Shown in pieces: positions 36,756-56,584 of a stretch of 64,000 nucleotides of DNA. A program made the translations under genes and the position numbers. The notes under the pieces are model-generated. The model was not told the DNA's origin and searched no databases. It saw only the letters and a program-made list of their open reading frames with translations. The number at the start of each line of letters is the position of its first letter. Position 1 is the first letter of the stretch. The stretch spans positions 288,001 through 352,000 of the forward strand of contig OY760183.1 of assembly GCA_963663275.1 (NCBI GenBank), written 5' to 3'. The stretch comes from Chloroflexota bacterium (GTDB taxonomy: Bacteria; Chloroflexota; UBA11872; VXOZ01).

Positions 36756-37004
36756 CTATGCGTACACCGCCACCAGGACGGCGTCGTTGGGGTTTTGCAG
36801 GTCATTGAAGACCACGATGCAGTCTCTTCCGGCCGTGACGGCGGTGGCGTCCAGGCCGCGATTCACGGCGATGCCGGTGAGAAAGGTGGAAAACGAGCCG
36901 CTGAACTCCACGTCCGCCTGCCACGTCTTCGCGTCGAATGCCTTGACGACGCCGCTCAAGGCGACGCCGGGCGTGATGCCTCTCGTGTCATCTCGTTCCG
37001 CCAT
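36756..37004 (-). CDS. Small phage-like protein (possible OB-fold spike/tail tip)
   Basis: 82 aa, GGAGG RBS, last gene of the virion cluster; beta-rich GVVKAFD pattern. Confidence 0.7.
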   Translation of the reverse strand: MAERDDTRGITPGVALSGVVKAFDAKTWQADVEFSGSFSTFLTGIAVNRGLDATAVTAGRDCIVVFNDLQNPNDAVLVAVYA

Positions 37005-37188
37005 GATTTCCTCCGTTACGGGTTAATGTGTGTGTGCCGCCGTCCGCCCCCGATGCGGCGCGTGCGTTCCCTTCGCAGGCGGGGGACAAGCCCCCGCGCT
37101 ACGATGGCGCGATTTGGGGCGTGTGGGCGGATCTTGGGGTCGTAGGGGCGGTTCGCGAACCGCCCCTACACGCGGTCGATCATTCGCC

Positions 37189-37284
37189 CACGCGCATGGC
37201 CAAATTCTCGCGCACGCGCATGGCCAATCATCTGCGCACGCGCATGGCCAATCATCTGCGCACACGCATGGCTGAATTCTCTGT
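37189..37284. repeat. 24-bp tandem repeat x4
   Basis: CACGCGCATGGCCAATCATCTGCG-type units. Confidence 0.9.
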
Positions 37285-37303
37285 ACGCGCGCATCGCGCC
37301 CGG

Positions 37304-39268
37304 CTACGCCTCCAAGGCGCCGCAGGCCAGGGTCATCGTGTATTCCGCGTCGTGGGGCGTGTAGCGGTGGCTGATGCGCATAACGCGCAGTTTGCCGTGG
37401 GCGAAGCCGGTGGTTTGAAAATCGACCACGTCGCCCACCTGGAGCGCCGGATTATAGGGCACGTCCACCGTATAGGTCTCGCCGGCGCGGCGGAAGCCGT
37501 CCAGCACGGCCGCGGCGCGCTTCTGGCAGTCCGCCGCCTGGGTCAGTTGGGTATCGGTCACCAGCGCCGTCCGTTCGCCGCCCTGGGCGCGCAGCGCCGC
37601 CCAATCCCAGGCCTCGCCCAGCGCGCCCGTGCCCTGCACCAGCACGTGGTTGATCCGGTCACGCTCCTGCCAAGCGCCGGCGAACTCCAGGCCCGTGTAC
37701 GTCCACGCCGCCGCGTCGGACTTGCCGGGAAACCAACAGCGCACCGCGCCGTCCGGTTCCACCCGCCACCAGAGACCGTCCAGCGCCGCCAGGCGGTCGA
37801 TCATCGTCTGCCAGGATTGGCCGGCGTGCAGGGCGAAAGCGGATAGAACGCGGCTGAAGCGGCTGTCGCTGTCGTCGGTCGCCCGCAGCGCGCCGGCGCG
37901 GTACCAGGCCTCGGCCAGCAGCGCGCGCAGGGTCTTGCCGCTGTGCGACCAGGTCTGCGCCGCCCGGCGGACCGCGTGTACGCTGGCGTCCGCGGCCTCC
38001 ACGCGCACCGTCTTATCGGGCAGCAGCGTAACGGCTTGCACCACCAGATCCGCCAGCGCGACGCGCTCGCTGCCGCCGCCGGTCACGTAGCCGCCGCTCA
38101 CGCCCAGGGTCGCCCCGGCGCGCAGCGTCTTGTCCAACCGGCCTTCCAGCGCGCCGTCGGCGTTATCCAGCAACAGGCGCGCGTTGCCCGTCTCGTTCGC
38201 CCGTTCCTCCCACTGGAAGTCCAGCGCGCGGGACGTAACGTCCTGGTACTGGTCCGCGTTTGTGGCCGCGTAGCCGCCGTAGGCGTGGGCGAATTCCTGG
38301 TTCACCAGCCAGTAGTGGGTCGCGTCTTGCCGCAGCCACCAGAAGCCGGTGTAGGATTCGTCCTCCACCGGCGTCGCCTCGCTGAACGTGCCCCAGGCGC
38401 GCGCCGTGCAGTAGCGCCAGCGGCCGAAATTGAGACCCGACACCGTGCCGTAGTCGCGCTCCAGGTAGCCGATCCGGAACGCCTGCTCCCAGTAGTCTAT
38501 TGTAGGATCCAGCAGGTCGCGCCGCGCCGCGCTGTCGTCCACGCGGGCAATCGGCGTCAGCGGCTCCCAGGTCGTGCCGTTGGTGCGGCAACCCACGATG
38601 GCGGTGCCGGTAGCCCCCGGCGCGCCGCCCCAGAGCGAGAGCGCCAGGTGCCAGGCCGTGCCGTCCCACACCGCGCCAATGCCGCCGCACGCCGAGTACG
38701 TGCCGTGGCTCCACTCGTCCGCCTGCCAACTGCCGCCGGATTCATGCAGCCGGTAGACCGTCACCCCGCCGCCGGTCTTATCCACGGCCAGGAAGATGCT
38801 GCCGTTGCCGCCGTAGCAGAGCGCGCGCACGAACTTCTTGGCGTTCCAGAGCGTCTCCGCGCTGCTCCAGGTGGCGCCGTTGTCGGCGCTGGTGCGGCGG
38901 TAGACGGTGGTGAGCCTGACGTAGACCACCGCCGCGTGGCCGTTGGGCAGCACGCCCGCCCCCACGCCCGCCGCGCCGGTGACGCCGGTCTGCAACGTCG
39001 TCCACGTAGTCCATTGGCTCGCCTGGGTGGCATCCGTAATGCGCTGATAGGCGATGCTGGCCGCAATCACGCCCCGGTCCGTGGAAATGTCCACCCGCCA
39101 CAGCGCGCCGCCGTTATCCACGAAGCAGGCGTTGGCGGCGGCGGCGCGCGCCGCGGAGCGATAGCGCGTGTAGCGGTGGGCGGCGTCGCGCAGGGTGAAC
39201 TGCATTGCCGGCCGGCGGGCCGCCGCGTCCACCGCCGCCGCCAGCGTTGTGGTCAAGGTGCGCGCCAT
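37304..39268 (-). CDS. Putative tail/baseplate hub protein with BNR/beta-propeller-like region
   Basis: Asp-box SADNGATW; C-terminal PYNPALQVGDVV hub-like motif. 654 aa. Confidence 0.65.
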   Translation of the reverse strand: MARTLTTTLAAAVDAAARRPAMQFTLRDAAHRYTRYRSAARAAAANACFVDNGGALWRVDISTDRGVIAASIAYQRITDATQASQWTTWTTLQTGVTGAAGVGAGVLPNGHAAVVYVRLTTVYRRTSADNGATWSSAETLWNAKKFVRALCYGGNGSIFLAVDKTGGGVTVYRLHESGGSWQADEWSHGTYSACGGIGAVWDGTAWHLALSLWGGAPGATGTAIVGCRTNGTTWEPLTPIARVDDSAARRDLLDPTIDYWEQAFRIGYLERDYGTVSGLNFGRWRYCTARAWGTFSEATPVEDESYTGFWWLRQDATHYWLVNQEFAHAYGGYAATNADQYQDVTSRALDFQWEERANETGNARLLLDNADGALEGRLDKTLRAGATLGVSGGYVTGGGSERVALADLVVQAVTLLPDKTVRVEAADASVHAVRRAAQTWSHSGKTLRALLAEAWYRAGALRATDDSDSRFSRVLSAFALHAGQSWQTMIDRLAALDGLWWRVEPDGAVRCWFPGKSDAAAWTYTGLEFAGAWQERDRINHVLVQGTGALGEAWDWAALRAQGGERTALVTDTQLTQAADCQKRAAAVLDGFRRAGETYTVDVPYNPALQVGDVVDFQTTGFAHGKLRVMRISHRYTPHDAEYTMTLACGALEA

Positions 39269-39270
39269 GC

Positions 39271-39708
39271 CTAGACCTCCCGCAATTCTACGCTCATCTC
39301 CCACTCCAACACCCACAACCGCTCCTTGCCGTACGGGATGATGCGCTCCGCGCACGCGGCGAAACGCACCGTGTGGCTGACGCCCAGCGGATCGACGAAG
39401 GTGTGGCTCTCGTTCGGCCGCTCGTAGAACGACCAGAGCCGGTCGCGCCACTGCCGCGCCGTGGTGGCGTTCGTGGCGCCGTCCGGATTGCGGACGTTCT
39501 GCCGGCAGAGCGCCACGAAGCCGAACTCGCGCTTACCCAGGCCGCTTTCCACGTACGCCGGCGCGCCGCCCGCGGTCAGGCGCGTGCGGGCGTGGCGCGG
39601 GCGGGTCATGGTGTACGTGCCGGGCTTGATGAAGAACCCCACCGCATCGCCGTCGTTCACGTTGGCGTTCGTCAGGGTTACGTTGCAGTCCACTCCAATG
39701 GTTGCCAT
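39271..39708 (-). CDS. Phage-like hypothetical protein (paralog of 40086-40493)
   Basis: TIGVDCNVTL...FFIKPGTY...NPDGATN. Confidence 0.8.
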   Translation of the reverse strand: MATIGVDCNVTLTNANVNDGDAVGFFIKPGTYTMTRPRHARTRLTAGGAPAYVESGLGKREFGFVALCRQNVRNPDGATNATTARQWRDRLWSFYERPNESHTFVDPLGVSHTVRFAACAERIIPYGKERLWVLEWEMSVELREV

Positions 39709-39772
39709 GTGTCTCGTGCTCTCTCTCGTGTTGCTAGCCTTGCTGCGGCTCGTTGCCGGCCCTTGCGGCCGG

Positions 39773-40030
39773 AAGACCTTTGCATTGCCCCTTCACCATC
39801 GAGGGCTGACAGGGGTAGGCAAGTGTCATTCCGAGCGGAGCGTCGAACAGGGTTCGCGGAATCTAGAACCGACGTTTTTGCAGCGAAAGCCTTAGATTCC
39901 GCGCTCTTAGCGACTCTCCGCTGCGCTCCGCTCGGAATGACACGTGAAGTCGGATGTAGAATGCCTACCCCTGTCAGCCATCGAGGGGGAAGGCTGGGAT
40001 GGGGGTGAGAAGAATCTGTGAAAAGGCCTC
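39773..40030. mobile_element. Composite MITE copy D (inner 39804-39979)
   Basis: Inner element flanked by ATCGAG direct repeats; lies inside the virion operon. Confidence 0.78.
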
Positions 40031-40085
40031 CGGATGCGGTAGGGGCACGACATGTCGTGCCCCTACCGGTGTGGGCGCCGCTGCG

Positions 40086-40493
40086 TCACGCCTCCACCAA
40101 CGTCACCGCGATCTCCCACTCCGGCGTCTCCCAGAATCCCGATGCCTCCGCCGCGCGCTCCTCCAGCGCCAGCGCGCGCACGCTGTGCGCGGCGTTCAGC
40201 CGGTCGGTGAAACTCAACGCCGCGGTCTTGGCGTAGGAAGCCCGCAGGTTGGCGCGGTAGGCGGCGGCGGTGGTGGTGTTCACCGTGCCGTCGTGGTTGA
40301 GGTGGTTGGTGTAGGCCAGCACGGTAAAGCGCCAGACCTGCTTGCCCGCGCCCAGATCCACCGCCGCCGGACCGGCGCTTGCGTCCGGATCGGCGGCCAT
40401 CACCTTGGGCACCTCCACGCGATAGGAACCAGGCTTCACGAAGTAGCCCTTTCCATCCAGGATTACCGAGCAATCGGTACCAACGGTTGGCAT
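40086..40493 (-). CDS. Phage-like hypothetical protein
   Basis: TVGTDCSVIL...YFVKPGSY...NHDGTVN. Confidence 0.8.
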   Translation of the reverse strand: MPTVGTDCSVILDGKGYFVKPGSYRVEVPKVMAADPDASAGPAAVDLGAGKQVWRFTVLAYTNHLNHDGTVNTTTAAAYRANLRASYAKTAALSFTDRLNAAHSVRALALEERAAEASGFWETPEWEIAVTLVEA

Positions 40494-40500
40494 AGGTCTC

Positions 40501-40875
40501 TTACCTTATCGCTACGAGTTTGGCCACTATGCGGTTGGGCGCGCCGGTCAATCCCAGGCGCAGGCGCTCCCGCACCCGGTATTTGCGCGCGCCGGCCACC
40601 GCGCTGCTGTCCGGCGTGTCGGCAATCGCCACCACGTCGTCCAGGTCTACGTCCGGCGCGAACTCCGCCGTGACGTCCGCGCCCTGGCCGCCGGCGGCGT
40701 TGCCCCGGTCCGCTGCGCCCGCGGCGACGTTGCGCTCCTCTTTCCACGTGCACTCCGCCGCCGTATAGACCGTCTTGCCGCCGCTTGCGCTAATCAGCGT
40801 GACCGTGCGCAGCCGCCCCTGGCGAATCTCCTTGCGGTTTGCCGCCACCTGCGCGGCCTGCCTGCTATCCAGCAT
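40501..40875 (-). CDS. Phage-like hypothetical protein (possible head-closure)
   Basis: 124 aa; position after the adaptor gene; coupled to the next gene. Confidence 0.65.
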   Translation of the reverse strand: MLDSRQAAQVAANRKEIRQGRLRTVTLISASGGKTVYTAAECTWKEERNVAAGAADRGNAAGGQGADVTAEFAPDVDLDDVVAIADTPDSSAVAGARKYRVRERLRLGLTGAPNRIVAKLVAIR

Positions 40876-41538
40876 CGTTCTCTGCCCCTGCCTTTCCTGC
40901 GTTGCTGTGTGACGTTTCTTCGATTTACCGGCCAGCGCCGTAGTCCGGTTAGGAAGAGACGGCATGGAGAACGCCGGAAACCGCCGCGGCCATGCGCACA
41001 GACCACCGGCGCACCGCCGTTCCCCCACAAACGCCCGTTCACCCCCCGTAGGGGCGGTTCGCGAACCGCCCCTACGCCGTTAGCGTATGTCTGAATCCCA
41101 CTCCGGTAACGCCGGTTTCAATCCCGCGCCGTTAGCGTAATTCTGAATCCCACGCCGGTAGCGTAGTTTTGAATGCCGCGCCTCCGGTAGCGTAGATTTG
41201 AATCCCACTCCGGTAGCGTAGGTTTGTAACCTGCGCTGCGCCGGCCGGCGGCGGGACGGCACACGCGAGTATCCGGCGGCGGGGGACAAGCCCCCGCGCT
41301 ACGTTAGGGCGACAGCGTTGGCGATTGCCCACGCCCCGACCGTGCCGCATCCAGCAGAGCCGGCTCGCTGTCGTTCCAAACGCAGCGCAACCGCCTCCTC
41401 CCTGTCATTCCGAACGTAGCGGAGCGAAGTGAGGAATCTAGAATCCCCCGACCATCAATCCTTCCTACGCGGGACTCTAGATTCCTCGCTCCACTCGGAA
41501 TGGCAATCTGACAGCGCGTTACCTGAAACCTGCGCCAC

Positions 41539-42207
41539 TCAACGCCCCGCGTCGTTATCCTCCACCGTCCACGCCACGCTGCCCCGGGTCTGGTGCGCTC
41601 TTTCCTGCCGCAGGGCCGCAACCGCTTTCTCGAACGCCTCCCGCGCGTCCATGCCCTTGCGCCACCACGCCTCGCTCACCATGCTCGTATCCACGCCCGC
41701 GCCCTGCTGGCCGTCCTGGTAGCGGAAGTTATCGGACTTGGGGGTGGCGTAGGCCAGGCAGGCGAAAGCGTACGCGCCGGTGGTCAGCAAGCCGGTGTGG
41801 GCGTCCGGCAGCGTCCATTGGCTCTCGCTGGCGGCGTGTTTCGCGCCCCAGCGCACGCGCACCGGTTCCGCCGCGCCGGGCGCTTCCGGCACCAGCAGAA
41901 AGACGAACCCCGGCGCGCCGTTGCTCGTGGGCAGCGCCATGAACGTGCAAAGCTGCGGCGGATAACGCCCTGTGGGCCACTCCACCTCCTCCACGCTCCA
42001 CACGCCCGTGAGAGTGCTCAGGTCCACCAGGCGCGAGTCGGCGCTGGTGGTCAGGGTAGCGTCGCGCGTCCAGGGGGCGGCCCGGGAGAGTTCGGTCAGG
42101 GCGCGGTCGATGGCGTGATCCAGGTCCGCGTCGCTGAAGCGCGCCTCGGCCCCGGCCGGATCGAACAGTTCGCTGCGCAACGCGCCGCGAAATTCGCTCA
42201 GTGTCAT
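41539..42207 (-). CDS. Putative head-tail adaptor
   Basis: FSDADLDHAIDRAL helical N-terminus; directly after the capsid gene. Confidence 0.7.
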   Translation of the reverse strand: MTLSEFRGALRSELFDPAGAEARFSDADLDHAIDRALTELSRAAPWTRDATLTTSADSRLVDLSTLTGVWSVEEVEWPTGRYPPQLCTFMALPTSNGAPGFVFLLVPEAPGAAEPVRVRWGAKHAASESQWTLPDAHTGLLTTGAYAFACLAYATPKSDNFRYQDGQQGAGVDTSMVSEAWWRKGMDAREAFEKAVAALRQERAHQTRGSVAWTVEDNDAGR

Positions 42208-42456
42208 AGATGTTCCTTCCATTGACTGCTACGTGAAGCACGTTCGTGAAGTGTGTTCGCGAAGCGCGCTTGGAATGCCCGGCCCAAAGCGGCGGCACAA
42301 CGCCGCGCCTCTCACCGCAACCGGCGCCGTGTAGGGGCACGACATGTCGTGCCCCTACACGGCGTCCCCTCACCCCGGCCCTCTCCCCAGGGAGAGGGGG
42401 CTAACAAAACGCCTGGCGTGTTTGCCCTCTTCCCAGGGAGAGGGTGTCAATAGGCC

Positions 42457-44451
42457 TTACGCCACCTCCGCCCAGTACGCGCCCCGGTAGTCCAGCCAGC
42501 CGCCGCCGAACTCCCAGCGCACCTTGTAGCTGATCGCGTCGTTGGTGAAGACCGAGCCCGCGGTCGGGTTATCCTGCACCAGCAGTTCCGGCGTCTCCTG
42601 GCCGTTGATGAAGCCCACCTCCAGGCACTCGCTCTGCGCCGGATCCGCCATCAGGTAGTAGTCCTTGGCGTCGCTGAACTGCGGCACGACAATCGGCTCC
42701 AACATGCCTTGCAGCGGATTAGCGTCGTTGTTCTGGCTGCCGGGCAGCAGCGTGCTGTTCAGGATCGTCACCGCCGTCCAGTACAGATCCGGCGGCAGCA
42801 GCAGGTAGCGCGGCTTGAGGCCCAGGCGCTTGCCCGCGCTGTTGGTCTGCTTCATCATCTGCGTGATCGCGGCTTGCAGCGACGCGGCCGACAGCGCGGC
42901 CGTGCCGCGATTCTTGTGCGCGGTCTGGCTGCCGTCGTCGAAGACTTTGCTGGTGTCCGCCAGCGTGGGATTGCCGGTGAAGAGGCCGTAGACGAACTCA
43001 TTGATCGTCGTGGCGGCGGCGATCGCCAGCTTGGTGGGAATGCGCCGCACCGCTTCCAGATCGTCGTTCAGGATCGCCTCGCGGGTGACCACCACCAGGT
43101 TGCCGCGCTTGGCCGGGGTGTAGGTCTCGCGCGTATCGTCCCACGCCAGGTTCGTGTACGCCGCGTTCTCGTTCACCGTGCCCAGCGCGCCGAAGTCGTG
43201 CAGCAGCACCCGGTACTGGGGCTTGTAGTCGCGGATGGCGCGGATCGCGCAGAGCTTCTTCCAGTCCTGCGGCTGCGCGCCGTAGTCCTGCACCAGGCGC
43301 TTGCTGATGGCGTTGGCGAGAGCGTGGTTGAGCACGCTGGTGGTAACCTCGTTGGCCTCGCGCACCAGCGAGAGTTCCGGCCGCATCGCGCCCCGGATTT
43401 CGGCGTCGCCGGTGATCTGCACGTAGGCCTCGCGGATGCTGGACCAGGCGGGTACCGGCTCGTCGGCGGCCACGTCCCGCACGCCCAGCAGGCGCGCCAG
43501 ACCGGCCTCGATCGCGGCCAGGCCCCGCTCGGCGCCCGCCGCGCCCATGCTGACCCGCGTCTTCTCCGCGCCCGCGCCGCGCACGCCGTTGGCGGAACCG
43601 GTCAAGGCGCGCACGGTCTCCACCTCGTCCTGGACGGCCTGCTCCAACACCTCGGTGGTAAAGGTCTGCCCCGCGAAGCGGCGGCGCAACTTGCGCGTGA
43701 GCGCCGCCGGCAAGGCCGCGCTCTCCAGCCGCTCGTTCAGGGTCGTCATGCACGCCAGCTTGGCCTCGGCTTCGGCCAGGCGCGCGTCGGTCGTCTGCGT
43801 GGTCGTGTCTTCCATCTGTACCTCCTCGGTATGGGGTGTGTCCGCGGTCTCCGCCCCGGCGTGGGGGCGGTCGTTGCCGGTCTCGGCTCGTTGGTCTGCT
43901 TGCATAAACTCCTCCTTGGCTGTATCGAGAATCTCCCGCGCTTCCAAAATATGCTCGAACGCGCCGCCGGCCGCGGCCCGGGTAACCACGTCGCAGGAGC
44001 GCAGCGCCGGGATGTTCTCCACCACCTGCACAGTCTTGCCGTCCCGCCGCTGGGCGCGCACCGACGCCAGCGAGTCGATCGAAAGACCCAACACGTCGGG
44101 CCGTCCCATCTCCACGGCCTCTTGCACCAGGCTCCAGAGCCAGCCGGCGCTGCTGAAGATGTGGAGCACGGCCCGCACGCGGTCGCCCTCCAGCCGGGGT
44201 TCGCGGTAGAACCCCACCACGTCGCGCACGCTGCGGGGCGCGCCCGCGCCGTCCGCCGCGGGCGGCGGATGGTCGGCAAAGGCTTTCAGGCCGTCAAGCT
44301 GCGCCGCTACGTCTTGCAACGCCTGGGGCGTGAAGTAGCGGCCGTTGCGCGACATGCCCTGCCGCAGCACGGTCACGGCCACCTCCCGCCGCGGCGCGTC
44401 CAGTTGCGCCTCCCGCAACGGCACCAGCAACGCCAGTTCTGCCGTTTTCAC
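42457..44451 (-). CDS. Prohead protease/scaffold-major capsid fusion (Mu gpT-like C-terminus)
   Basis: GMSRNGRYF, LGLSI, CDVVTRAAAGG protease-like motifs; TREAILNDDL, PRYLLLPPDL, YKVRWEFGGGWLDYRG capsid motifs. Confidence 0.88.
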   Translation of the reverse strand: MKTAELALLVPLREAQLDAPRREVAVTVLRQGMSRNGRYFTPQALQDVAAQLDGLKAFADHPPPAADGAGAPRSVRDVVGFYREPRLEGDRVRAVLHIFSSAGWLWSLVQEAVEMGRPDVLGLSIDSLASVRAQRRDGKTVQVVENIPALRSCDVVTRAAAGGAFEHILEAREILDTAKEEFMQADQRAETGNDRPHAGAETADTPHTEEVQMEDTTTQTTDARLAEAEAKLACMTTLNERLESAALPAALTRKLRRRFAGQTFTTEVLEQAVQDEVETVRALTGSANGVRGAGAEKTRVSMGAAGAERGLAAIEAGLARLLGVRDVAADEPVPAWSSIREAYVQITGDAEIRGAMRPELSLVREANEVTTSVLNHALANAISKRLVQDYGAQPQDWKKLCAIRAIRDYKPQYRVLLHDFGALGTVNENAAYTNLAWDDTRETYTPAKRGNLVVVTREAILNDDLEAVRRIPTKLAIAAATTINEFVYGLFTGNPTLADTSKVFDDGSQTAHKNRGTAALSAASLQAAITQMMKQTNSAGKRLGLKPRYLLLPPDLYWTAVTILNSTLLPGSQNNDANPLQGMLEPIVVPQFSDAKDYYLMADPAQSECLEVGFINGQETPELLVQDNPTAGSVFTNDAISYKVRWEFGGGWLDYRGAYWAEVA

Positions 44452-44471
44452 TGCATAATCCTCCCTTCGAT

Positions 44472-44543
44472 ACCTGTACGTCGCACGATGTCTGTGCGAC
44501 GTACCATATCTGTGTGTCGTACTACACCTGTGCGTCGTACACT
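44472..44543. repeat. 18-bp degenerate tandem repeat x4 with an 11-bp hairpin upstream of the capsid gene
   Basis: Units resemble ACCTGTGCGTCGTACnnn; GTACGTCGCAC/GTGCGACGTAC at 44476-44504. Confidence 0.8.
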
Positions 44544-44706
44544 TTCATGCGGCGTCAATCCGGTAGCGCAGGTTTGTAACCTGCGTCCGCCGCCGTTTCC
44601 CGTAGCGCGGGGGCTTGTCCCCCGCAACGAAAACCCCCGTATGGCGGTCTGGCCTGCGCCGGTCCGGCGAAGATTCGCCCTCACCCTAACCCTCTCCCCC
44701 AGGAGA

Positions 44707-44857
44707 GGCCGACAGGGGTATGTAAATGTCATTCCGAGCGGAGCGAGGAATCTAGAAATGGTGATCTTGCAGGGCTGTGCTTTAGATTCCTCACTTCGCT
44801 CCGCTCCGTTCGGAATGACAAGTGATGTCGATTTTGGAGTACATACCTCTGTCAGCC
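44707..44857. mobile_element. Inner-type MITE in a REP hairpin
   Basis: GGCCGAC...GTCAGCC flanked by CAGGAGA direct repeats. Confidence 0.82.
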
Positions 44858-44924
44858 CAGGAGAGGGAACCTGAGGCCGTCCCCCGCCAGAGGCAACCTG
44901 CGCCGAATTGGTACAATAGCAACC

Positions 44925-45506
44925 ATGAACCAACCCAGACCGCCCGCCGCTGCCGTCTCGCTGACCGTCGTCGTCGCGCCCTCCCAGGCCGGCGGCTACT
45001 GGGCGGAGTTGCCGGCGCTCCCCGGCTGCGCCGCCCAGGGCGACACCGTTGACGCCGTGCTCACCGACCTCACGATGGCGGCGGAGATGTTCCTGGCCCA
45101 GGAAGCGCCGCCCGACGATACGCTCACGCTGCGCACCGTCACCGTTGACGTGGGCGGCGCCGCGTACCGCCTGCCGGCCGTCTGCTGGCGCGGCGGACAG
45201 CGCGTCAACGCCGTTGCCATTCCGCTCCACGACCGGGTGGCGCGCGGCGAAACCCCGGAACACGCCCTGGCGCAACTCCGCGCGCTGCTGCCGGCCTGGA
45301 TCGCCGCCGACCTGAGCGAAGGTGAGTCCGTGCCGGCGGTCGTCGTGGCCGATACCGCCACCATCCGCCCCCGCGTAGGCCAAGCCACCGGCGCGCCCGT
45401 CTCCCAGGCCGAGGCCCTCAAGCCCGAAGTCGTCCTGGTGCTCCTCCGCGCCGCCGGCATGACCAAAGACCAACTCAGCGAGATGCTGGACTACGACCCG
45501 GATTGA
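44925..45506 (+). CDS. Tandem HicB-like domain protein
   Basis: GGYWAELPALPGCAAQGDT and a second ARGETPEHAL domain. TGgTACAAT lies 7 bp before the ATG (leaderless?). Confidence 0.75.
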   Translation: MNQPRPPAAAVSLTVVVAPSQAGGYWAELPALPGCAAQGDTVDAVLTDLTMAAEMFLAQEAPPDDTLTLRTVTVDVGGAAYRLPAVCWRGGQRVNAVAIPLHDRVARGETPEHALAQLRALLPAWIAADLSEGESVPAVVVADTATIRPRVGQATGAPVSQAEALKPEVVLVLLRAAGMTKDQLSEMLDYDPD

Positions 45507-45822
45507 CCGCGTCCGCCTTCCAATCCCCTCTCCCTCGAGGGAAAAGGCTAGCCGCCGCGTCCACGTCCGCCTTCCAGTCCCCTCTCCCTTGAGGGAGAGG
45601 GTTAGGGTGAGGGTGTCCCTCTTCACTCGTTCCCCATCCGCTCGGACAATCCCCTCTCCATCGCAGGCGCAATTTAGCCCCAGCCACCGCGACCGCCCTC
45701 CAGTCCCCTCTCCCTCGAGGCAAATGGTTAGCCGCCGCGTCCGCATTCGCCTTCCAGTCCCCTCTCCCTCGAGGGAGAGGGTTAGGGTGAGGGTGAGGGC
45801 ATGGAATCGTCCGCGCATCCCG

Positions 45823-47079
45823 TTACTCCTCCTCAGCCAGGAAGCGCCGGAAGAGGCGCGCGGCGTCCTCCGTTTCCAACCAGCCCTCCGACCGGGCCAA
45901 TTGCAGCGAGCGCGCGAACGATTCCGCGTGCGGCCCCGCCACGTGGGCCACGTCCGGCTGGAGTTCCTGGAAGACCACGCGAAAAGACGGGTCAACGTCC
46001 GCCGCCAGCGCGCCGGCCTCCTGCTTGGCCTGAATCGCCCGCGCCACCAAGCGGCGCAGGTAGCGGCCAAGCAACTCCTGGCGGCGTTGGAAGCGCCGCA
46101 GCGTCGGCAGGCCCATCTCGGCCGCCGTCGCCCGGTTCACGTGCCCGCCTTCCGCCAGATAGTGCTCCGGCAGACCCGCGCCGGCCGCGATCATCAGCTT
46201 GAGCGCGCGCCCGTCCGCGGCCACGTCGTCGGCGCCAATCGAGGGCTGCACCGGCTGCCAGGTCTCGGCCTCGTTGTGGAAGACCACCGTGCCCGGCGCG
46301 GGCGGTTGGGCGTAGGCGGCCATCTTGGCCAGCAGGTCGTTGCGCGTCGCGCCGCGCACGGTCACGTCGTAGACGAAACTGCCTTTGAGACGGTTGATGC
46401 GGGCGCGGTCGACGAGCCAATCCCGGTACCGCTTCAGCCACGGCAAGAGCGGCGCCAGGTCGCTGCGCCCCCGCAGGGCGTTGGAGACGCGATTGATGGT
46501 AAAGTGCTCCATCTCCGCCGCCGCTACCCAGTAGCCCGGCTCCGCGCCCACACCCCGCACCCGGTAGCGCAACGCGCGCTCGATGTCTTCCGGCGCGGTT
46601 TCAATCTGATCGATAAGCAGCGGATCGAGTTGACGCAAACGTATCTCGCCGGTGAGCGGATCGGTGAACACCCGCACGAACTGCTCGCCGTAGAGCGCCA
46701 GCTCGGTGTAGAGACTGTAGACGCGGGTGTCCATGGCGTTATCCGGGTGCTGCCAGAAGGCGTCCACCGCCTCCTGCGCCGCCGGACTGGCGCACGCGAT
46801 GCGCACGCCGCCGCCAAGCACGAAATTGACCTGCACGTCGATCACGGCGTAGGCCAACGGATTGGTGACGTACGCCTCGTAGACCTCGCGCAGCAAACGC
46901 TGGTGGTCCCACAAGGGATCGTCCCGCGTCTCCGCCGCGCCGGCGGCCTGCCGGTAACCGACGTCCTCCGCCGCCACCGCCTCCTGCACCCGCGCCTGGA
47001 TTACGTCGCCAAAGAGACGCTCGCCCAAACGCTGCCACCACTGTCTCGTCTGTATCGCCTGTCTCGTCTGCATCGTCAT
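45823..47079 (-). CDS. Phage portal protein
   Basis: YVTNPLAYAVID, LYGEQF, RGRSDL, NRATA; located between terL and capsid. Confidence 0.85.
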   Translation of the reverse strand: MTMQTRQAIQTRQWWQRLGERLFGDVIQARVQEAVAAEDVGYRQAAGAAETRDDPLWDHQRLLREVYEAYVTNPLAYAVIDVQVNFVLGGGVRIACASPAAQEAVDAFWQHPDNAMDTRVYSLYTELALYGEQFVRVFTDPLTGEIRLRQLDPLLIDQIETAPEDIERALRYRVRGVGAEPGYWVAAAEMEHFTINRVSNALRGRSDLAPLLPWLKRYRDWLVDRARINRLKGSFVYDVTVRGATRNDLLAKMAAYAQPPAPGTVVFHNEAETWQPVQPSIGADDVAADGRALKLMIAAGAGLPEHYLAEGGHVNRATAAEMGLPTLRRFQRRQELLGRYLRRLVARAIQAKQEAGALAADVDPSFRVVFQELQPDVAHVAGPHAESFARSLQLARSEGWLETEDAARLFRRFLAEEE

Positions 47080-47617
47080 CTCGCTCGCTTTCTCTGAGTT
47101 CAAATACCTCAGGCGTTTCACGCCGTCATTCCCGCGCGCAAACCGGGATATCCGTCATTCCCGTGAAAACGGGAATCCATCTTCTCTTCCGGAGCCGCCA
47201 TTCCACCCCATGCGGGGGACAAGCCCCCGCGCTACGTGTCCGCCACTCCGGTAGCGCAGGTTTGTAACTGCGTCCGCCTGCCTGCCTCCGGTAGCGTAGG
47301 TTTTCAACCTGCGCTCGCGGCCCACCATTCCCGCACATGGCCGCATTCCATCCCCCGTAGGGGCGGTTCGCGAACCGCCCCTACCGCCTCACCCCTTGCG
47401 GGGGACAAGCCCCCGCGCTACGTCCCTTCCACCCTTCCGGTTCCTATCTCTCTTGCCGCTCGCCCTTTCTTGCCGTTCACCCTGAGCCAGTCGAAGGGCA
47501 TCCGTTCATGGTTCGACAGGCTCACCACGAACGGACGCGCGAACGCGGTCCTGCCTACCTCCGGTAGCGCAGGTTTGTAACCTGCGTCCCCGCCCGCGCT
47601 ACGGCGGGGCGGCGCAT

Positions 47618-49171
47618 CTAATACCCCTCCGTGTGCGCCTCTGGCGGCGGCAGCGCCACCGACGCCGCCGGCGGGGCGCCGCCCTCCGCTGCGCGCGTCA
47701 GCAGGGCCAGGGCCGACACGTAATCGTCGTGCCCCTGGCCGGACGGCACGTGAAACGAAATGCGCTGGCCCGGATGCAGCGTCAACCGGCAGCGCCGAAC
47801 CTGAAGCCGGCACTCCCGGTATTCCGGCGAGCGGTCGTCGGCCCACACTTGCAGGCGTCCGCCGCTCACCAGAGCGCGCAGGTCGTAGCCCAGGGCGCTC
47901 TTGGATTGCGCCGTGAACGTAAACGGCTCCACGCGCTCGCGGCCCAGGCGCGCTTGCAGGAAACGCGCCAGCGCGTCGCCCAGGCCGGTGGCGTCGATGA
48001 TTGCCCGTTGGACGCGCCATTCTTTGCCCAGCAGGCGCGCCAGGCGGGCGTACTGCTCGGTGGTGGGCAGGCCGGTCCACTGGTAGGCGTTCACGATCTC
48101 AATCGCGGGCAGGGCGAACCCCAGCGCCGGGTCGTGCCGCCAGACCCGCTCGCCGATCAAGACCACCGTGCTATCGCGCCGCGTGTTGGCGCCGCATTGC
48201 GCCGGAGCGGTCTCTTCACCCGCCACGTCCACCGCCGCCACGTAGTGCGCGTCCGAGCGCGGTTCGCGCTGGCGGGGGTGGCCGCCTTGCAGCGCCGCTT
48301 GCAGTTCCGGCGTGAAGAAGCCGGTGGCGTCGTCCACCTCTTCCAGGCAGTACTGGGTGCGGATGACCAGGTCGTCCTCCCCGCGCTGGCGAATCTGCGC
48401 CGCGACCGCCTTGCCATATTGCGGATTGGCCTTCGCCCCCGTTTGCCAGGGATATGAAAAATGCCGCCGTTCGCCGGTCTTTTCTTCATGCGCCAGGTTC
48501 AGCGCCTTGTATTTGGCGAGCAGCGTATCCTGCGTCCACGGCGTGCCGTAGAGCACGATGGTGGCGTTCTGCGCCGCCGCCATGGGCAGGAACTCTTTGG
48601 CGAATTTCTCCTCGTCCACGTCCTGGGCTTCATCCACTTCCAGCAGCAGGTCGGCGGTAGCGCCCACCACGTTGGATTGCTCGTGGGCGGAAAGGAACAT
48701 CACCCGCGCCTTGCCGACCGCGATCATGCTGCCGTGCATGCGCCGCCAGTGCGGCGCCAGCCAGGGACGGTCCAGCACCGCTTCCAGACGCATGCGCGAG
48801 ATGAGCGTCTGCGGCGTGAGCGTGGGCGCGCACTTGACGATCGTGCCGCCGCGCCGCTGGTGGCGGTAGAGCAGGTAGGCTTCCAAGTGGGCCGATAGCT
48901 CGTTCTTGCCCATCTGCCGCGCCATTTCCACGGTGAAGACCGCGCCCGCGCGCCGCCGCGCGCTGCCCAGCACCGCCCGCGCCACCGCAAGCTGATAGGA
49001 ACGCAGCGGCCGCCCCACGAGCACCCGCGAAAAATGCGCGATGTCGTTGAGCGTGTAGCGAAAGAAGGCGCGGGCCAGCGCGTCCCGGTCGTCGCCATAC
49101 AGAACCGGCGACGGGCGGGCGGTCGCGCTCTCCGTGTGATTCTTGTGCGTGTGCGCTGCGTTCGTCTGCAT
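47618..49171 (-). CDS. terL: Terminase large subunit
   Basis: Walker A ARQMGKNE, Walker B LEVDEAQD, nuclease VDVAG, DATGLG, HDDYV. Confidence 0.9.
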   Translation of the reverse strand: MQTNAAHTHKNHTESATARPSPVLYGDDRDALARAFFRYTLNDIAHFSRVLVGRPLRSYQLAVARAVLGSARRRAGAVFTVEMARQMGKNELSAHLEAYLLYRHQRRGGTIVKCAPTLTPQTLISRMRLEAVLDRPWLAPHWRRMHGSMIAVGKARVMFLSAHEQSNVVGATADLLLEVDEAQDVDEEKFAKEFLPMAAAQNATIVLYGTPWTQDTLLAKYKALNLAHEEKTGERRHFSYPWQTGAKANPQYGKAVAAQIRQRGEDDLVIRTQYCLEEVDDATGFFTPELQAALQGGHPRQREPRSDAHYVAAVDVAGEETAPAQCGANTRRDSTVVLIGERVWRHDPALGFALPAIEIVNAYQWTGLPTTEQYARLARLLGKEWRVQRAIIDATGLGDALARFLQARLGRERVEPFTFTAQSKSALGYDLRALVSGGRLQVWADDRSPEYRECRLQVRRCRLTLHPGQRISFHVPSGQGHDDYVSALALLTRAAEGGAPPAASVALPPPEAHTEGY

Positions 49172-49414
49172 CTATTGCCCCGGCACGATGGTCAGCAGGC
49201 TGTTCAGGAAGGCGGCGGCGAACGGCGAGGCGAAGATGCCGATCAGGATCACGTTGATCTTCGCTTCCAGCCGGGCGTAGTCTTCCCGGGTGTTCTCGGC
49301 CAGTTCGCGGGTCACCTGGCCGTAGGCGCAGCCGTGTTGCGCCAGGCGGTCCGCCAGTTCGTGGCAGCGCGCGTCGTGTTTCGGCGGCGTGTGCGTGGGT
49401 GTCTCATTCAGCAT
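49172..49414 (-). CDS. Small coiled-coil plus TM protein (holin/XhlA-like?)
   Basis: YARLEAKIN followed by a hydrophobic C-terminus; translationally coupled on both sides. Confidence 0.6.
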   Translation of the reverse strand: MLNETPTHTPPKHDARCHELADRLAQHGCAYGQVTRELAENTREDYARLEAKINVILIGIFASPFAAAFLNSLLTIVPGQ

Positions 49415-49769
49415 GGGGTTCTGCCTCCGCGTGCTCTTCCTGTTGTTCCCGTGTTTCGATTTCGGCGATCACCTGGCGCATCGCCTCGGTCAGGTTGTCC
49501 TCGGCCCGGGGCGAGAGTTGGGCGCGCGCTTTCAAGGCGTCCAGGAGAATGCCCGTCAGTTCCTTCACCGCCTTGATCTTGTCCGCCGGCGCGCGCTCGT
49601 CGTCATCGGCGCTGAGCAGTTGGGCCGCGATGCGGCGCATGAGCATGCGCAGCAGGCCGATCTCGTCCTGCAGCAGCGGATTGTCCGCCGTGCGCTCCAG
49701 CGCCGCCAACTCCTGCTCGGTGAAGAGGTCGGCGTACAGGCTTGGGGGTGGTTGCTTGCTTTGGGTCAC
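49404..49769 (-). CDS. Putative terminase small subunit
   Basis: Helical LQDEIGLLRMLMRRI protein, first in the operon, upstream of terL. Confidence 0.6.
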   Translation of the reverse strand: MTQSKQPPPSLYADLFTEQELAALERTADNPLLQDEIGLLRMLMRRIAAQLLSADDDERAPADKIKAVKELTGILLDALKARAQLSPRAEDNLTEAMRQVIAEIETREQQEEHAEAEPHAE

Positions 49770-50000
49770 CGCGTTGTTTTCCTTTGCGTCGTGGCTGTGC
49801 GCTTCTCTTTAAAGCAAGAAGCAGTGTTCCGCGCCTTCCCGCTCCCGCCGTCGCCGCCGTCTCCGGTCCGCCGCGCCGCGCGGCTTGCTGCCGGTGTCTT
49901 TGGGAGCGTGGGGATGGCGCTGTGCGGCGCGCGCCCCCGGTTTTGGGGCGTGCATAAAGCTATATTCAAAAAAAATGTAAAAAATGAGGGGTGAAAGGGG

Positions 50001-50029
50001 TTGCAATTTTACGAAGTATTTACTATACT
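50001..50029 (+). promoter_or_regulatory. Sigma70-type promoter for lexA-like gene
   Basis: TTGCAA-N17-TATACT with an A-rich UP-like tract at 49968-49985. Confidence 0.75.
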
Positions 50030-50247
50030 GGAAAAAACGCGGCGGAGAGTCCCGCCTCACCCTCAAGAAAGAAGGCTAGAGCGCGGAGTGCCCTCTCCCT
50101 CGATGGAGCGGGCTAGAGCGCAGGGTTCCCTCTCCATTGATGGAAAGGGCCAGGCCGCCAAGTCCCCTCTCCCTCAAGGGAGAGGGTTAGGGTGAGGGTG
50201 AATCTTCCTCTTAGCGGCATCCGGCGATTTTAGGAAGGAGAACGCAC

Positions 50248-50931
50248 ATGAACGAAACGCCCACGGGTAGGGGCACGGCACGCCGTGCCTCCAGCGCGGC
50301 AGGCCGCGCCGCCGGCGCGGCAGAACGCCCCCAGCTTACCGACAAGCAACGGCAGGTGCTGACGTTTCTCACGCGCGCGCAGCGGGAGGGGCGGTGGCCC
50401 ACCTTGAAAGAGATTGCCCAGCGCATCGGCGCGCGGGCGCCGGCGGCGGCGCACCACCACCTGAAGCGCCTGGAGGCCAAGGGCTACCTGCGCCGCGCGG
50501 CCTGGGGCGCGTACGAACTGACGCCCCAGGTGCAGATGCTGGAGGGCTTGGGCGTGGCGCGCGTGCCGGTGCGCGGCACGATTGCCGCCGGTACCGGCGT
50601 GGAGGCGGTGGAGGCCGTGGAAGACTGGCTCACCGTGGATAGCGTCTTCGCCCGCCATCCCGACGTCTACGCCCTGCGCGTGCAGGGCGACAGCATGGTG
50701 GACGCCTGCGTCTGCGACGGCGACCACGTGCTCATCCGCCCCCAACCCGGCGCGGAGAACGGCGAGATGGTGGCGGCCCTGCGCGACGACGGCACCGCCA
50801 CCCTGAAGAACCTCCACCGCGAGGGCGGCAACGTATTCCTGGTACCCGCCAACCCCTACTACCCCACGCTCCCCGGCGACAACATCACCATTCTCGGCAA
50901 GGTAGTGGGCGTAATCCGCGTGTTTGCATGA
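50248..50931 (+). CDS. lexA: LexA-family repressor (S24 autopeptidase)
   Basis: LTDKQ..PTLKEIA winged HTH, IAAG cleavage site, GDSM Ser and TLK Lys catalytic motifs. Confidence 0.88.
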   Translation: MNETPTGRGTARRASSAAGRAAGAAERPQLTDKQRQVLTFLTRAQREGRWPTLKEIAQRIGARAPAAAHHHLKRLEAKGYLRRAAWGAYELTPQVQMLEGLGVARVPVRGTIAAGTGVEAVEAVEDWLTVDSVFARHPDVYALRVQGDSMVDACVCDGDHVLIRPQPGAENGEMVAALRDDGTATLKNLHREGGNVFLVPANPYYPTLPGDNITILGKVVGVIRVFA

Positions 50932-51185
50932 AGGAGCCGCCAGCACGAGTCGCAAGCAAGAACCGCAGGCAGGAGCCGGGAGCAAGGCATTCCTTCCGTT
51001 CGTCCTGAGCGCGTCGAAGGATGAACGGAAGGAATGCCGAGCGCGTGTAGGGGCGCCTCACGTAGGGGCGCTTCGCGAAGCGCCCCTACGCAAAACGACC
51101 CAACACGAAACGCACATGCGCAAAACGCCCCCTACGCCACGCACAAACCACCGTGCCGGTTTTAACGAAAAGAGAGGAAAGAACA

Positions 51186-51932
51186 ATGGCAGCGACAATG
51201 CCCTTGATGAATGCGGCGCCGTTGGCGAAAGCTACGCCTGTGGCGAAAGCAACGCCTGTGGCGCAAGAGCCGTCACCCGCGCGCCCGCAGCGCGGGCAAA
51301 GTCCGCCGGACGAACTGTTCGTCACGGTGCAGGCGGCCAAGCAAGGCAACACCACCGCCCAGATGCTGCTCATGGACCGCCTGCGCCTGCCCATGGAGCG
51401 CCAGATCCGGCGTCTCAAGCGCAGTTTCCGCCCGTCGGAGGCCGAGGACGCCCGCCAGGAGGTGCAGCGCCTCTTCCTGGAGTTGCTCTACGAATACGAC
51501 CACACGCGCAACGGCAACTTCGAAGCCTACATGTGCACCATGCTCAAGTGGCGCGTGCACAACTTCGGCCGCACGTCCCGCCGCATCGCGCCGCCGGACC
51601 CGGCCCACAACCAGTCGCTCAGCGACGAGATCACGGCCTACCTGGCCGAACAGCGCCTGCGCGCCGGTGGCTGGGACGCTTCGTCCACGCATCCCACGGC
51701 TGACTGGGAGCCTGGGTCCACGGAACCGGCAATCCACGCCGAGCTCGAGATCGCCCTGCAAGCCCTCACGCCCAAGCAGAAGACGGTGCTCTACGCCATC
51801 TACTGGCAGGACCGCCGGGTGGTGGACGTCGCCGCGCGCATGGGCGTCAGCCCCCAAGCCGTGCGCGCCATCCGCCAACGCGCGGAAAAGATCCTCCGCC
51901 AACGCCTGGAAGCCTGCGGCACCGGGTCGTAG
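51186..51932 (+). CDS. Alternative sigma-70 family RNA polymerase sigma factor
   Basis: Region 2 (EDARQE..YD..RNGNFEAY) and region 4 HTH (LTPKQK..VAARMGVSPQAV). Confidence 0.85.
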   Translation: MAATMPLMNAAPLAKATPVAKATPVAQEPSPARPQRGQSPPDELFVTVQAAKQGNTTAQMLLMDRLRLPMERQIRRLKRSFRPSEAEDARQEVQRLFLELLYEYDHTRNGNFEAYMCTMLKWRVHNFGRTSRRIAPPDPAHNQSLSDEITAYLAEQRLRAGGWDASSTHPTADWEPGSTEPAIHAELEIALQALTPKQKTVLYAIYWQDRRVVDVAARMGVSPQAVRAIRQRAEKILRQRLEACGTGS

Positions 51933-55681: not shown

Positions 55682-55731
55682 CCTGTCTCCTCGAACAGGT
55701 GTTACCTATGTCCCCGGACTCTCCATTCCAG

Positions 55732-55896
55732 GGCTGACAAGGGTATGTAAATGTCATTCCGAGCGCAGCGTCGAACAAGGTTCGCGGAATCTAGAGATGC
55801 TGATCTTGCAAGGCTGCGCTCTAGATTCCTCACTCCGCTGCGCTCCGTTCGGAATGACACGTCAAGTCGACTATAGAGTACATACCCCTGTCAGCC
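55732..55896. mobile_element. Inner-type MITE
   Basis: GGCTGAC...GTCAGCC flanked by ATTCCAG direct repeats. Confidence 0.85.
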
Positions 55897-56584
55897 ATTC
55901 CAGGGAGAGGGAGTCCGAGCGCGGGTTCGCGCGGGACATGCGCGAAACCTGCGTCTGCCGTAGGCTCATTGTGTACGTGCCCTCACAATGATGGGACGTC
56001 ATTTGAAAGCACGCCGCGCTGGCTGCTCTGGCGGGGGACAAGCCCCAATGTTGTCGCATTAAACGCAATGAGAGTGAAAACTACGCTTGTTTCTCCGGTA
56101 GCGCAGGTTCGCACGGGAAGTGCGCGTAACCTGCGTCTTCCGTAGCGTCAATCGATTCCGTTCTCATTTTTCTTGTCCCGGCGGGGGACAAGCCCCCGCG
56201 CTACGTTTACGCGACAGTATTGGGGACAAGCTCCCGCGCTACGTCAGTGCGACAACACAAGGGCTTATCCCCGCTCCCCACCCGCGCAGGTTGCAAACCT
56301 ACGCTACCAGAGCGGCCGCTGCCAACATCGTCACCGTAGCGCCGGGGCTTGTCCCCAGTGTTGTCGCATAGAACTGCTGAGCACTGTCCTCCCCGTTCGT
56401 GCTGAGCCCGTCGAAGTATGAACGGGGAGGACAGCGCTCAGCAACCGGCCCGCCGTTCACCTGGCGACAGGCACAAGACCCGCCCCGAGCCTGCCGCGCG
56501 GGCCTCCCGCTGTTTCACGGCGGCGGCAAATGCGCTAGCATTGGTGAGCAGCGTGCCCGCAGTAGCGCGAAAGAAACACCGTCT

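Follow-up and report, generated by a model that had tools for sequence, protein, structure and literature searches.

The genome of a Chloroflexota bacterium, a single contig of 3.53 Mb and ~67% GC, carries a cluster of virion-like genes that is the subject of this report. We analyzed a 64-kb stretch of that contig (positions 288001-352000), referred to here as the window, and gene coordinates are given within it. Eleven co-oriented genes occupy the minus strand from 36756 to 49769, beginning with a small-terminase-like (terS-like) gene, c01, and ending with a small tip gene, c11. The evidence points to a phage-derived particle gene set that has probably been fixed and maintained by the host lineage as a gene transfer agent (GTA)-like viriform, not as a prophage. 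That the host maintains a particle system in one guise or another we hold to be highly likely. That the system is a true GTA, i.e., that it packages and transfers host DNA, is possible, and we advance the idea guardedly. Gene models were chosen among open reading frames by codon-position GC (GC3) and refined afterwards. They are as follows:

49404-49769, minus strand: c01, a 121-residue coiled-coil protein in the small-terminase position
49172-49414, minus strand: c02, 80 residues with a C-terminal hydrophobic helix, putatively a tail-anchored membrane protein
47618-49171, minus strand: terL, the large terminase, 517 residues
45823-47079, minus strand: portal, 418 residues
44925-45506, plus strand: a HicB-like (UPF0150) gene between portal and capsid (PF21748, 2.8e-8; phrog_497, 1.5e-5)
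42457-44451, minus strand: a prohead protease-scaffold-major capsid protein fusion, 664 residues
41539-42222, minus strand: c06, head-to-tail adaptor, 227 residues
40501-40875, minus strand: c07, probable head-tail joining (connector) protein, 124 residues
40086-40493, minus strand: c08, tail-tube-fold protein, 135 residues
39271-39708, minus strand: c09, tail-tube-fold protein, 145 residues
37304-39268, minus strand: c10, an N-terminal beta-propeller followed by a C-terminal gp27/Mu gp44-like tail hub, 654 residues
36756-37004, minus strand: c11, a small beta-rich terminal gene, possibly the tail tip, 82 residues

The central head and packaging genes are recognizable by family. Specifically, TerL matches PHROG terL families (best 8.3e-8) and Pfam Terminase_6C (1.8e-4; 22.0 bits, slightly below the 22.6 cut-off), and the portal matches phrog_10963 (5.3e-38) and, weakly, Pfam Phage_portal. 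The capsid fusion matches PF25209 (1.2e-44), phrog_4523 (5.3e-71), and NF045541, "prohead protease/major capsid fusion" (1.2e-74, under the equivalog cut-off of that family). The TerL Walker A (RQMGKN), Walker B (LLLEVDE), and three acidic nuclease motifs are kept in 24 taxa from four families, frameshift-truncated rows aside, and the protease motifs FADH and GLSID are conserved in 23 of the 24 taxa, the remaining row being a gap. In the terminase and prohead-protease families, these motifs are the catalytic ones. Their conservation across four families indicates that selection acts on DNA packaging and on head maturation, a pattern that would fit a DNA-filled particle and would argue against an empty shell.

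The smaller genes around them are assigned with less ease. The c06 protein matches SU10_adaptor at 1.4e-5 (26.1 bits, against a cut-off of 27), a family also matched by 11 of 14 c06 homologs. For c07, the look-alikes in a protein language-model atlas (0.93-0.95) include Phage_H_T_join_3, Phage_attach, and DUF6093 clusters, which serve as a lead only, and its placement after the adaptor is kept in three other families (we label families within the class f1-f6, f1 being the window's genus), namely f2, f3, and f5. The c01 protein has a homolog in f2; its atlas neighbors are Chloroflexota hypothetical clusters only, and a T5 small terminase at 0.82 is likewise no more than a lead. The c02 protein has a homolog in f2 (6.7e-24), and Pfam and PHROG scans gave it no family match.

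The tail genes are read chiefly from structure. PDB profile searches gave nothing significant for c08/c09, c10, or c11, or for c01, c06, and c07. The c08 and c09 proteins are paralogs with 35% identity; the tandem duplication is seen in the window's genus only, and a single copy is present in f2, f3-type, and f5 loci. A structure model of this family, made from the c09 sequence (predicted local distance difference test, pLDDT, 84), finds Diffocin baseplate chains as its best Foldseek matches (TM-scores 0.68/0.71), followed by contractile-system tube initiators, lambda gpV, and a virion chain of RcGTA, the Rhodobacter capsulatus GTA. The c10 protein has weak PHROG baseplate-hub matches (3.7e-5). 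Its AlphaFold2 model is of low confidence (pLDDT 50), but each of its top 12 Foldseek matches in the PDB is to a hub or central-spike protein (E 1.7e-7 to 1.9e-5; TM-scores are low), among them an extracellular contractile injection system spike, Neisseria and Mu gp44 tail proteins, a pyocin hub, VgrG, and the HFTV1 tail. In its N-terminal half, c10 matches beta-propellers and has an invariant S-x-D-x-G-x-T-W stretch (S127, D129, G131, W134), which we take to be the Asp-box of sialidase-like propellers. Homologs of c10 at 26% identity occur in compact versions of the cluster (L065-L067), described below, and c11 lies directly after c10 both there and in the window. The c11 protein is without a family or PDB match, and a complex prediction for c10 residues 425-654 with c11 (score 0.13, mark 0.32) bears neither way on their association.

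Pfam and PHROG scans recognized no tape measure, sheath, tail fiber, or lysis gene in the cluster. Given these assignments and these absences, the tail would be a stub consisting of the adaptor, the connector, two tube-fold rings, the hub, and a small tip. The cluster comprises a full module for head, packaging, and short tail, with nothing added to it. A tailocin or other contractile injection system was considered and rejected: the cluster has genes for capsid, portal, and terminase, and the Pfam and PHROG scans detected no sheath.

The cluster is a fixture of its genus. Across all 98 species of the class, the capsid gene is present in all 16 species of the genus (as a single copy, 79-86% identity), in 9 of 9 f5 species, in the one f2 species (1/1), in 7 of 14 in f3, where assemblies are fragmentary (70-94% complete), in 1 of 19 in f4, where the sole match is weak and covers only the N-terminal third of the fusion, and in 0 of 38 in f6. 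The distribution of terL mirrors that of the capsid among 40 relatives. The RpoB tree groups f4 with f6 (99*) and places f2, f3, and f5 together in a second clade; thus, one gain or one loss explains the distribution of the cluster. The order of all 11 genes and the HicB-like gene is identical in 14 of 15 genus loci, so the conservation and synteny proposed as a check in the preliminary description of this DNA, which was made from its letters, are indeed found. The same description had placed the DNA in a probable Chloroflexota lineage, and 34 of 34 related loci come from Chloroflexota metagenome-assembled genomes (MAGs), all of them from uncultured hosts.

The capsid fusion also extends beyond the class. 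An even sample of the phylum contains it in 77 of 401 Chloroflexota genomes, a count that includes two unpublished positives, G132 and G228 (75 of 399 without both). The matches cluster by family; for instance, 24 of 28 genomes are positive in f25, compared to 0 of 25 in f6, 0 of 24 in f12, and 0 of 25 in f16. Copies in other Chloroflexota families are 43-69% identical to the capsid of the window. Among listed sequencing runs, the DNA runs include sponge metagenomes, with shares of 0.21-0.30, and no RNA run is present.

Divergence of the cluster scales with that of the host. Pairwise distances (p-distances) for terL, portal, and capsid combined correlate with those for RpoB at r = 0.99 over 276 pairs; within the genus, r is 0.77 over 120 pairs, a value reached in 0 of 2000 Mantel permutations. 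The cluster and RpoB trees have 11 of 21 splits in common, including every family clade and species-group clade. These 24-taxon trees use only genomes possessing all three genes, with the longest piece taken for the terL of G007 and the capsid of G013. The genome G014 (69% complete) was left out.

Selection on the cluster resembles that on its neighbors. For each gene, we calculated the median pairwise ratio of nonsynonymous to synonymous substitution rates (dN/dS) by the Nei-Gojobori method (NG86) from single-frame matches covering at least 85% of the query, with frameshifted copies excluded; the same filter applied to the profile HMMs. All 11 genes fall between 0.07 and 0.24 at median dS values of 0.49-0.96, and two genes of the host flanks have ratios of 0.10 and 0.17 at dS values of 0.64 and 0.76. 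The portal has the lowest ratio (0.07) and c07 the highest (0.24). Other values are 0.14 for terL and c06, 0.15 for the capsid and c11, 0.17 for c09 and for c01 (16 sequences), and 0.19 for c02. Long residence under purifying selection, which had been proposed for the cluster, is borne out by these host-flank-like values.

In the sister family f5, the genes are retained in a dispersed state. They are split over three host-flanked loci that lie 30 kb to 1.7 Mb apart: a portal-capsid locus between FakA/ValRS and Uma2/MutL, terL alone between guaA and an M50B peptidase gene, and an adaptor-connector-tube locus between a ComEA-like gene and an iron-siderophore transporter. For example, G038 carries the capsid at 2.49 Mb, the adaptor at 2.52 Mb, and terL at 4.08 Mb, and G026 carries them at 1.46, 1.31, and 0.56 Mb, respectively. 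The same host flanks recur in the other f5 species examined (portal-capsid, 5/5; terL, 4/5; tail locus, 2/2), and the frames are open apart from a split adaptor in G020. A selfish element divided in this way could be neither moved nor packaged in one piece. The f2 cluster, which runs from c01 to one tube gene, sits among CstA, ArsA, phosphoribosyltransferase, and HisRS genes. The compact version of the cluster, which belongs to another Chloroflexota lineage (L065-L067; 43% capsid identity), carries an endolysin-like Amidase_2 gene that separates the adaptor from the c10-c11 pair (L066:13007-13540), and c07-c09 were not detected there.

The ComEA-like gene of f5 (SLBB plus HHH_3 domains, a member of a DNA-uptake receptor family) immediately precedes the adaptor-connector-tube genes on their upstream side (L128:4434-5099 in G038, and also L129 and L130), and the arrangement is syntenic in three f5 species. 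In Rhodobacter, the uptake of GTA-borne DNA depends on competence genes. The adjacency in f5 may be due to chance.

Genes for mobility, of which the preliminary description had recognized none, are likewise missing under closer scrutiny. No integrase, excisionase, replication gene, or attachment (att) site was found near the cluster, and there is no tRNA in the 64-kb window. The tyrosine recombinase family PF00589 has only two matches in the genome, at 2.62 and 2.86 Mb, which places them more than 2 Mb from the cluster at 0.32-0.34 Mb. A clearly mobile relative provides the contrast. The IMG/VR contig L126 (82.9 kb) possesses the same terL-portal-capsid head module, with a capsid 39% identical to that of the window, and, beside it (1-21548), a large serine recombinase, a CI-like repressor with helix-turn-helix and S24 domains, Replic_Relax, a helicase, and a C5 methylase. 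The L126 helicase carries a LAGLIDADG (intein-like) insert. We reject a functional temperate prophage for the cluster, which lacks the integrase, lysogeny module, replication and lysis genes, and att site that such an element would have. The nearest capsid from a GenBank phage, that of Microcystis phage Mae-JY22, is 29.9% identical over 96% of the length. IMG/VR also lists fragments with the same gene order as viral; these are mostly 4-17 kb long and are indistinguishable from host DNA.

Two regulatory genes and a putative promoter region adjoin the 5' end of the cluster:

49940-50050: an AT-rich island in the c01-lexA spacer with two overlapping, divergent sigma-70-like promoter matches
50248-50931, plus strand: lexA (TIGR00498, 6.3e-46; 156.5 bits against a cut-off of 110.95)
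51153-51932, plus strand: a sigma factor of the sigma-70/extracytoplasmic function (ECF) superfamily (TIGR02937, 5.5e-13; 48.9 bits against a cut-off of 42.9)

Family matches confirm the earlier assertion that a LexA-family repressor and a sigma factor are transcribed divergently from c01. The LexA protein matches both PF01726 and PF00717, in line with a LexA equivalog. It is the sole LexA of the 3.53-Mb genome, being both the only tblastn match and the only strong S24 match, and an ortholog exists in 40 of 41 relatives, whether or not the cluster is present. The gene encodes the host SOS repressor and is not a private copy of the cluster. The sigma factor is one of three Sigma70_r4 matches in the genome; TIGR02937 spans residues 111-281 of its stop-to-stop frame, and Pfam detects region 4 only.

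The lexA-sigma pair adjoins the cluster in all 15 of the genus genomes in which both were found. In G010, the cluster, lexA, and the sigma gene are inverted as a unit relative to the aldolase and UbiD genes, and in G007, where the aminotransferase flank has been relocated, the three stay together. The adjacency is confined to the genus; in f2 and f5, the cluster lies away from lexA. The suggestion that the cluster has its own LexA-sigma switch therefore survives in part: the adjacency and a conserved island hold throughout the genus, but the gene is the genome's sole lexA and is not near the cluster in f2 or f5. Homologs of the sigma factor occur in 15 of 16 f1, 1 of 1 f2, 5 of 6 f5, 2 of 6 f3, 0 of 4 f4, and 0 of 7 f6 genomes, with 27-40% identity in f2, f3, and f5. 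Sigma homologs and the cluster occur in the same clades, a coincidence that amounts to one phylogenetic event and should not be counted as a statistic. In G028, in which no capsid or terL was found, lexA is followed by a distant sigma homolog (G028:C15:210579-211997), so the pairing may predate the cluster or be independent of it.

The AT-rich island is near-identical in all 15 sequences from the genus (14 loci plus the window) and is unique in the genome. Its promoter match toward lexA is TTGCAA-17-TATACT on the plus strand (50001-50029), and the one toward c01 is TTTCCA-17-TAAAAT on the minus strand (50034-50006). These are the only two such matches between 36.5 and 52.2 kb; their count is at chance level, and it is their location that stands out. 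Several operator candidates were rejected. GAACN4GTTC, the Gram-positive-type LexA box, occurs once in the window, at 17.9 kb, no more often than chance would give. Palindromes in the island, a Bdellovibrio-type motif, and a pattern derived from recA and lexA produced no regulon-like set, and where k-mers of the island recur in the genome, they do so by chance. Anchored alignments of the 140 nt that precede the cluster genes revealed ribosome-binding sites and a few conserved blocks specific to single genes (c01, c06, HicB, and sigma), but no motif in common. Because c01 shares the conserved divergent island with the sole lexA, which is followed by the sigma gene, DNA damage-linked expression is plausible but unproven. 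SOS-linked control of the cluster in this genus is a reasonable hypothesis, no more.

The GC content of the cluster is 0.665-0.685, compared to 0.57-0.69 across the window, and coding sequence makes up ~77% of its 13.05 kb. The flanking genes, said earlier to be ordinary host genes, are identified as metabolic ones: a class-V aminotransferase, Ldh_2, 2-keto-3-deoxy-6-phosphogluconate (KDPG) aldolase, and UbiD. An Rfam scan of the window gave no match. Host repeats are present in all seven spacers named at the outset (D labels are those of repeat families):

37005-37303: host repeats D7, D11, D12
39709-40085: a MITE-like (miniature inverted-repeat transposable element-like) element and a palindromic repeat, D8, D9, D14, I8
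40876-41538: host repeats D1, D6, D7, D11, I1
42223-42456: a palindromic host repeat, D14, I16
44452-44924: host repeats D1, D2, D8-D10, I20
45507-45822: tandem host repeats D3, D4
47080-47617: host repeats D1, D2, D7, D11

Of seven repeat families counted genome-wide, six have copies in the cluster (21-514 genome matches each), and the seventh (16 matches) has none there. The repeat-filled spacers make the cluster differ in span among species, from 11.9 to 18.4 kb. The MITE-like element (39790-39993) is ~200 bp long with 32-nt terminal inverted repeats, and related copies lie at 44702-44869, within the cluster, and at 55727-55908, outside it.

Within the cluster, the HicB-like gene revises two statements of the preliminary description. 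The co-oriented set holds for the 11 minus-strand genes, but this opposite-strand gene had been overlooked, and its presence means that the genes are not all co-oriented and that "no cargo" is not quite right. The gene is found in 15 of 15 genus loci with a dN/dS of 0.17, and it is missing from the corresponding place in f2. A conserved TACAAT box sits a few bases 5' of its ATG, a proximity that suggests a leaderless transcript.

Elsewhere in the window, GC content falls to 0.572 at 30001-32000 and is otherwise 0.63-0.69. At 56381-56480, a stop-to-stop frame precedes a membrane protein at 56.4 kb, and its initial ~32 residues match ~12 other genome sites at 50-78% identity; most likely, this is a translated repeat element and not protein homology.

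How the cluster might work can be proposed from its parts. The protease-capsid fusion would build the head on the portal and process itself. TerL, probably with c01, would pump DNA into the head and cut it. The adaptor c06 and the connector c07 would close the head, and a minimal non-contractile tail would be attached with no tape measure, comprising c08/c09 rings, the propeller-bearing gp27-like hub c10, and the c11 tip. Because replication, integration, and lysogeny genes are absent and the f5 genes are split over three loci, the cluster cannot propagate itself. The packaged DNA would most likely be host DNA. On what the genomes contain, GTA-like domestication appears to be the best reading, and domestication itself is strongly supported. 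Our fullest version of it, which we offer tentatively, is an ancient, independent Chloroflexota GTA derived from a temperate phage with a protease-capsid fusion, captured before f1, f2, f3, and f5 split, with related captures in many other families. It would be kept as an organelle-like particle of the host, would have a uniquely reduced tail lacking a tape measure, would move host DNA among uncultured, partly sponge-associated Chloroflexota, and, in this genus, would be under SOS control via the promoter region shared with lexA.

Several observations weigh against domestication as a GTA-like system. Six lesions exist in four species of the genus. G007 (locus L017) has three of them, i.e., +1 nt in terL, +4 nt in c10, and a TAC-to-TAA nonsense codon in the capsid, and G013 (capsid), G006 (c06), and G005 (c08) have one frameshift apiece, the last falling in a G5 run, so that it may be a read error. 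The one exception to the conserved gene order, G009, is a locus at a contig end that is without c06, c07, and c10. Taken together, the lesions and the gaps in G009 imply either that some species can do without the system or that the assemblies contain errors. The triple lesion of G007 looks like real decay and may represent a recent loss of function. In its closest relatives, G004 and G005, the cluster is undamaged or almost undamaged. The absent lysis gene, tape measure, tail fiber, and recognized small terminase belong on the same side, c01 having no Pfam, PHROG, or PDB match. The hub identity of c10 is a weak assignment that leans on the pLDDT-50 model and its low TM-scores, and a profile search of f2 and f5 found no c10 homolog. 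The link to LexA is one of adjacency only, the operator searches having found none. Finally, an approximately unbiased (AU) test rejected identical topologies for the cluster and RpoB trees in both directions (p ~1e-4, from a fast tree search with 1000 resampling of estimated log likelihoods (RELL) replicates, fewer than IQ-TREE advises), and the host reference is RpoB, one marker and not a species tree. The congruence of terL and capsid with the host, suggested earlier as a check, thus holds for distances (r 0.99) and for family clades but not for exact topology. The conflicts lie on internal branches of at most 0.065, and we read the overall pattern as vertical descent plus the usual single-gene noise or recombination within the genus.

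The rival that survives best, although we consider it unlikely, is a domesticated particle whose role is something other than transfer: PBSX-like killing, release of DNA or formation of biofilm matrix, or action as a decoy against related phages. The heads of such a particle may still fill with host DNA, delivery not being the selected function. This possibility shares all of the conservation evidence with domestication as a GTA. Moreover, the sialidase-like propeller of c10, with its Asp-box, could bind or cut a surface glycan, and the proximity of lexA fits an SOS-induced defective phage. Countering these points, the ATPase and nuclease motifs of the terminase are strictly kept, so DNA packaging is under selection, and neither a contractile sheath nor a lysis cassette was found. 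Killing and transfer are not separable from sequence.

Decay offers a second rival, namely a cryptic prophage remnant that was fixed by chance in the ancestor of the genus and is degenerating, with one or two genes kept for the host. The six lesions in four species, three of them in G007, are what such a remnant would display, as are the invasion of every spacer by host repeats and the absence of lysis, tape-measure, and fiber genes. We nonetheless judge it very improbable: the NG86 estimates point against it, with dN/dS at 0.07-0.24 in all 11 genes at dS 0.5-0.96; the frames are open over their full length in 14 of 15 loci; and the genes are retained in four families, even after dispersal. 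Least probable of all is that the cluster is mobile, either as a helper-dependent element (such as a satellite or a capsid-forming island) or as an active temperate phage with a fixed integration site. The related head module of L126, with its recombinase and repressor, and the viral classification of same-order fragments in IMG/VR would speak for this. Against it, most of those IMG/VR matches are the short fragments that might equally be host DNA; the cluster is accompanied by no integrase, excisionase, replication gene, att site, or tRNA; the flanks differ between families; the f5 genes lie up to 1.7 Mb apart; and divergence scales with that of the host.

GTA-like domestication, the reading we prefer, can be set against the systems already described. 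A 2024 review (PMC11841831) states that GTAs arose several times from different phages, that sequence similarity can neither define the class nor find new members, that encoding at multiple loci is typical, and that known GTAs comprise those of Alphaproteobacteria plus four isolated cases, with true prevalence an open question; in that review, the string "Chloroflex" occurs 0 times. A full-text literature search, assessed by titles and abstracts and with subscription journals outside its scope, returned no GTA or conserved capsid cluster in Chloroflexi/Chloroflexota. The cluster has those traits of GTAs that genomes can reveal: structural and packaging genes without replication, integration, or lysogeny genes, vertical inheritance, and no self-transmission.

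The closest parallel in organization is with the RcGTA-like GTAs of Rhodobacter capsulatus and Caulobacter. As described in the same review (PMC11841831), these also consist of a ~13-15 kb head-tail-packaging set without replication or integration genes, are vertically inherited under purifying selection, sometimes at several distant loci, and are under host regulators, the last a trait that the cluster may share. Gene content is another matter, as the preliminary description had anticipated. The cluster encodes a PF25209/Mu gpT-like capsid in fusion with the protease, it has no tape measure, its tail would consist of just two tube-fold rings and a hub, and its host belongs to the Chloroflexota. 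No GTA-named Pfam or NCBIfam family was matched by the cluster proteins, and RcGTA is set apart by family scans, not by direct alignment. Those scans did not reveal the homologs of RcGTA structural genes, including the tape measure and the HK97-type capsid, that define the RcGTA family, and the only structural link is the generic tube fold (6tba_50, at Foldseek rank 43). The cluster is therefore a candidate for an independently derived GTA-like viriform, one that appears to resemble a GTA without being a member of the RcGTA family. The other GTAs known from experiment, BaGTA (Bartonella), VSH-1 (Brachyspira), Dd1 (Desulfovibrio), and VTA (Methanococcus voltae), were compared by their descriptions in the same text (PMC11841831), and none comes from Chloroflexota.

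Among phages, L126 and Mae-JY22 have the terL-portal-(protease-)capsid module in common with the cluster, and the recombinase, repressor, and replication genes of L126 are missing from it. The PBSX-type defective prophages, which are phage-like bacteriocins that package host DNA, are chromosomal, non-propagating head and tail sets near SOS control. PBSX possesses lysis genes, a repressor of its own, and a tail that contracts. The cluster is likewise non-propagating and near lexA, but it is without a recognized sheath, tape measure, or lysis gene. The capsid-forming phage-inducible chromosomal islands (cf-PICIs) encode their own capsid, portal, protease, and terminase, keep integrase and replication genes, and borrow tails. 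The cluster is like them in its head and packaging genes and unlike them in having tail genes and no integrase or replication gene.

The present example adds a candidate from a phylum with almost no phage biology, in some of whose families the system is near-universal, and its very small tail architecture is worth solving. If DNA is transferred, the system would provide a route of gene flow in abundant uncultured Chloroflexota of soil, groundwater, and sponges. Finally, the cluster displays a domestication signature that is independent of similarity to RcGTA: clade-wide fixation, host-like selection, and dispersal among housekeeping loci.

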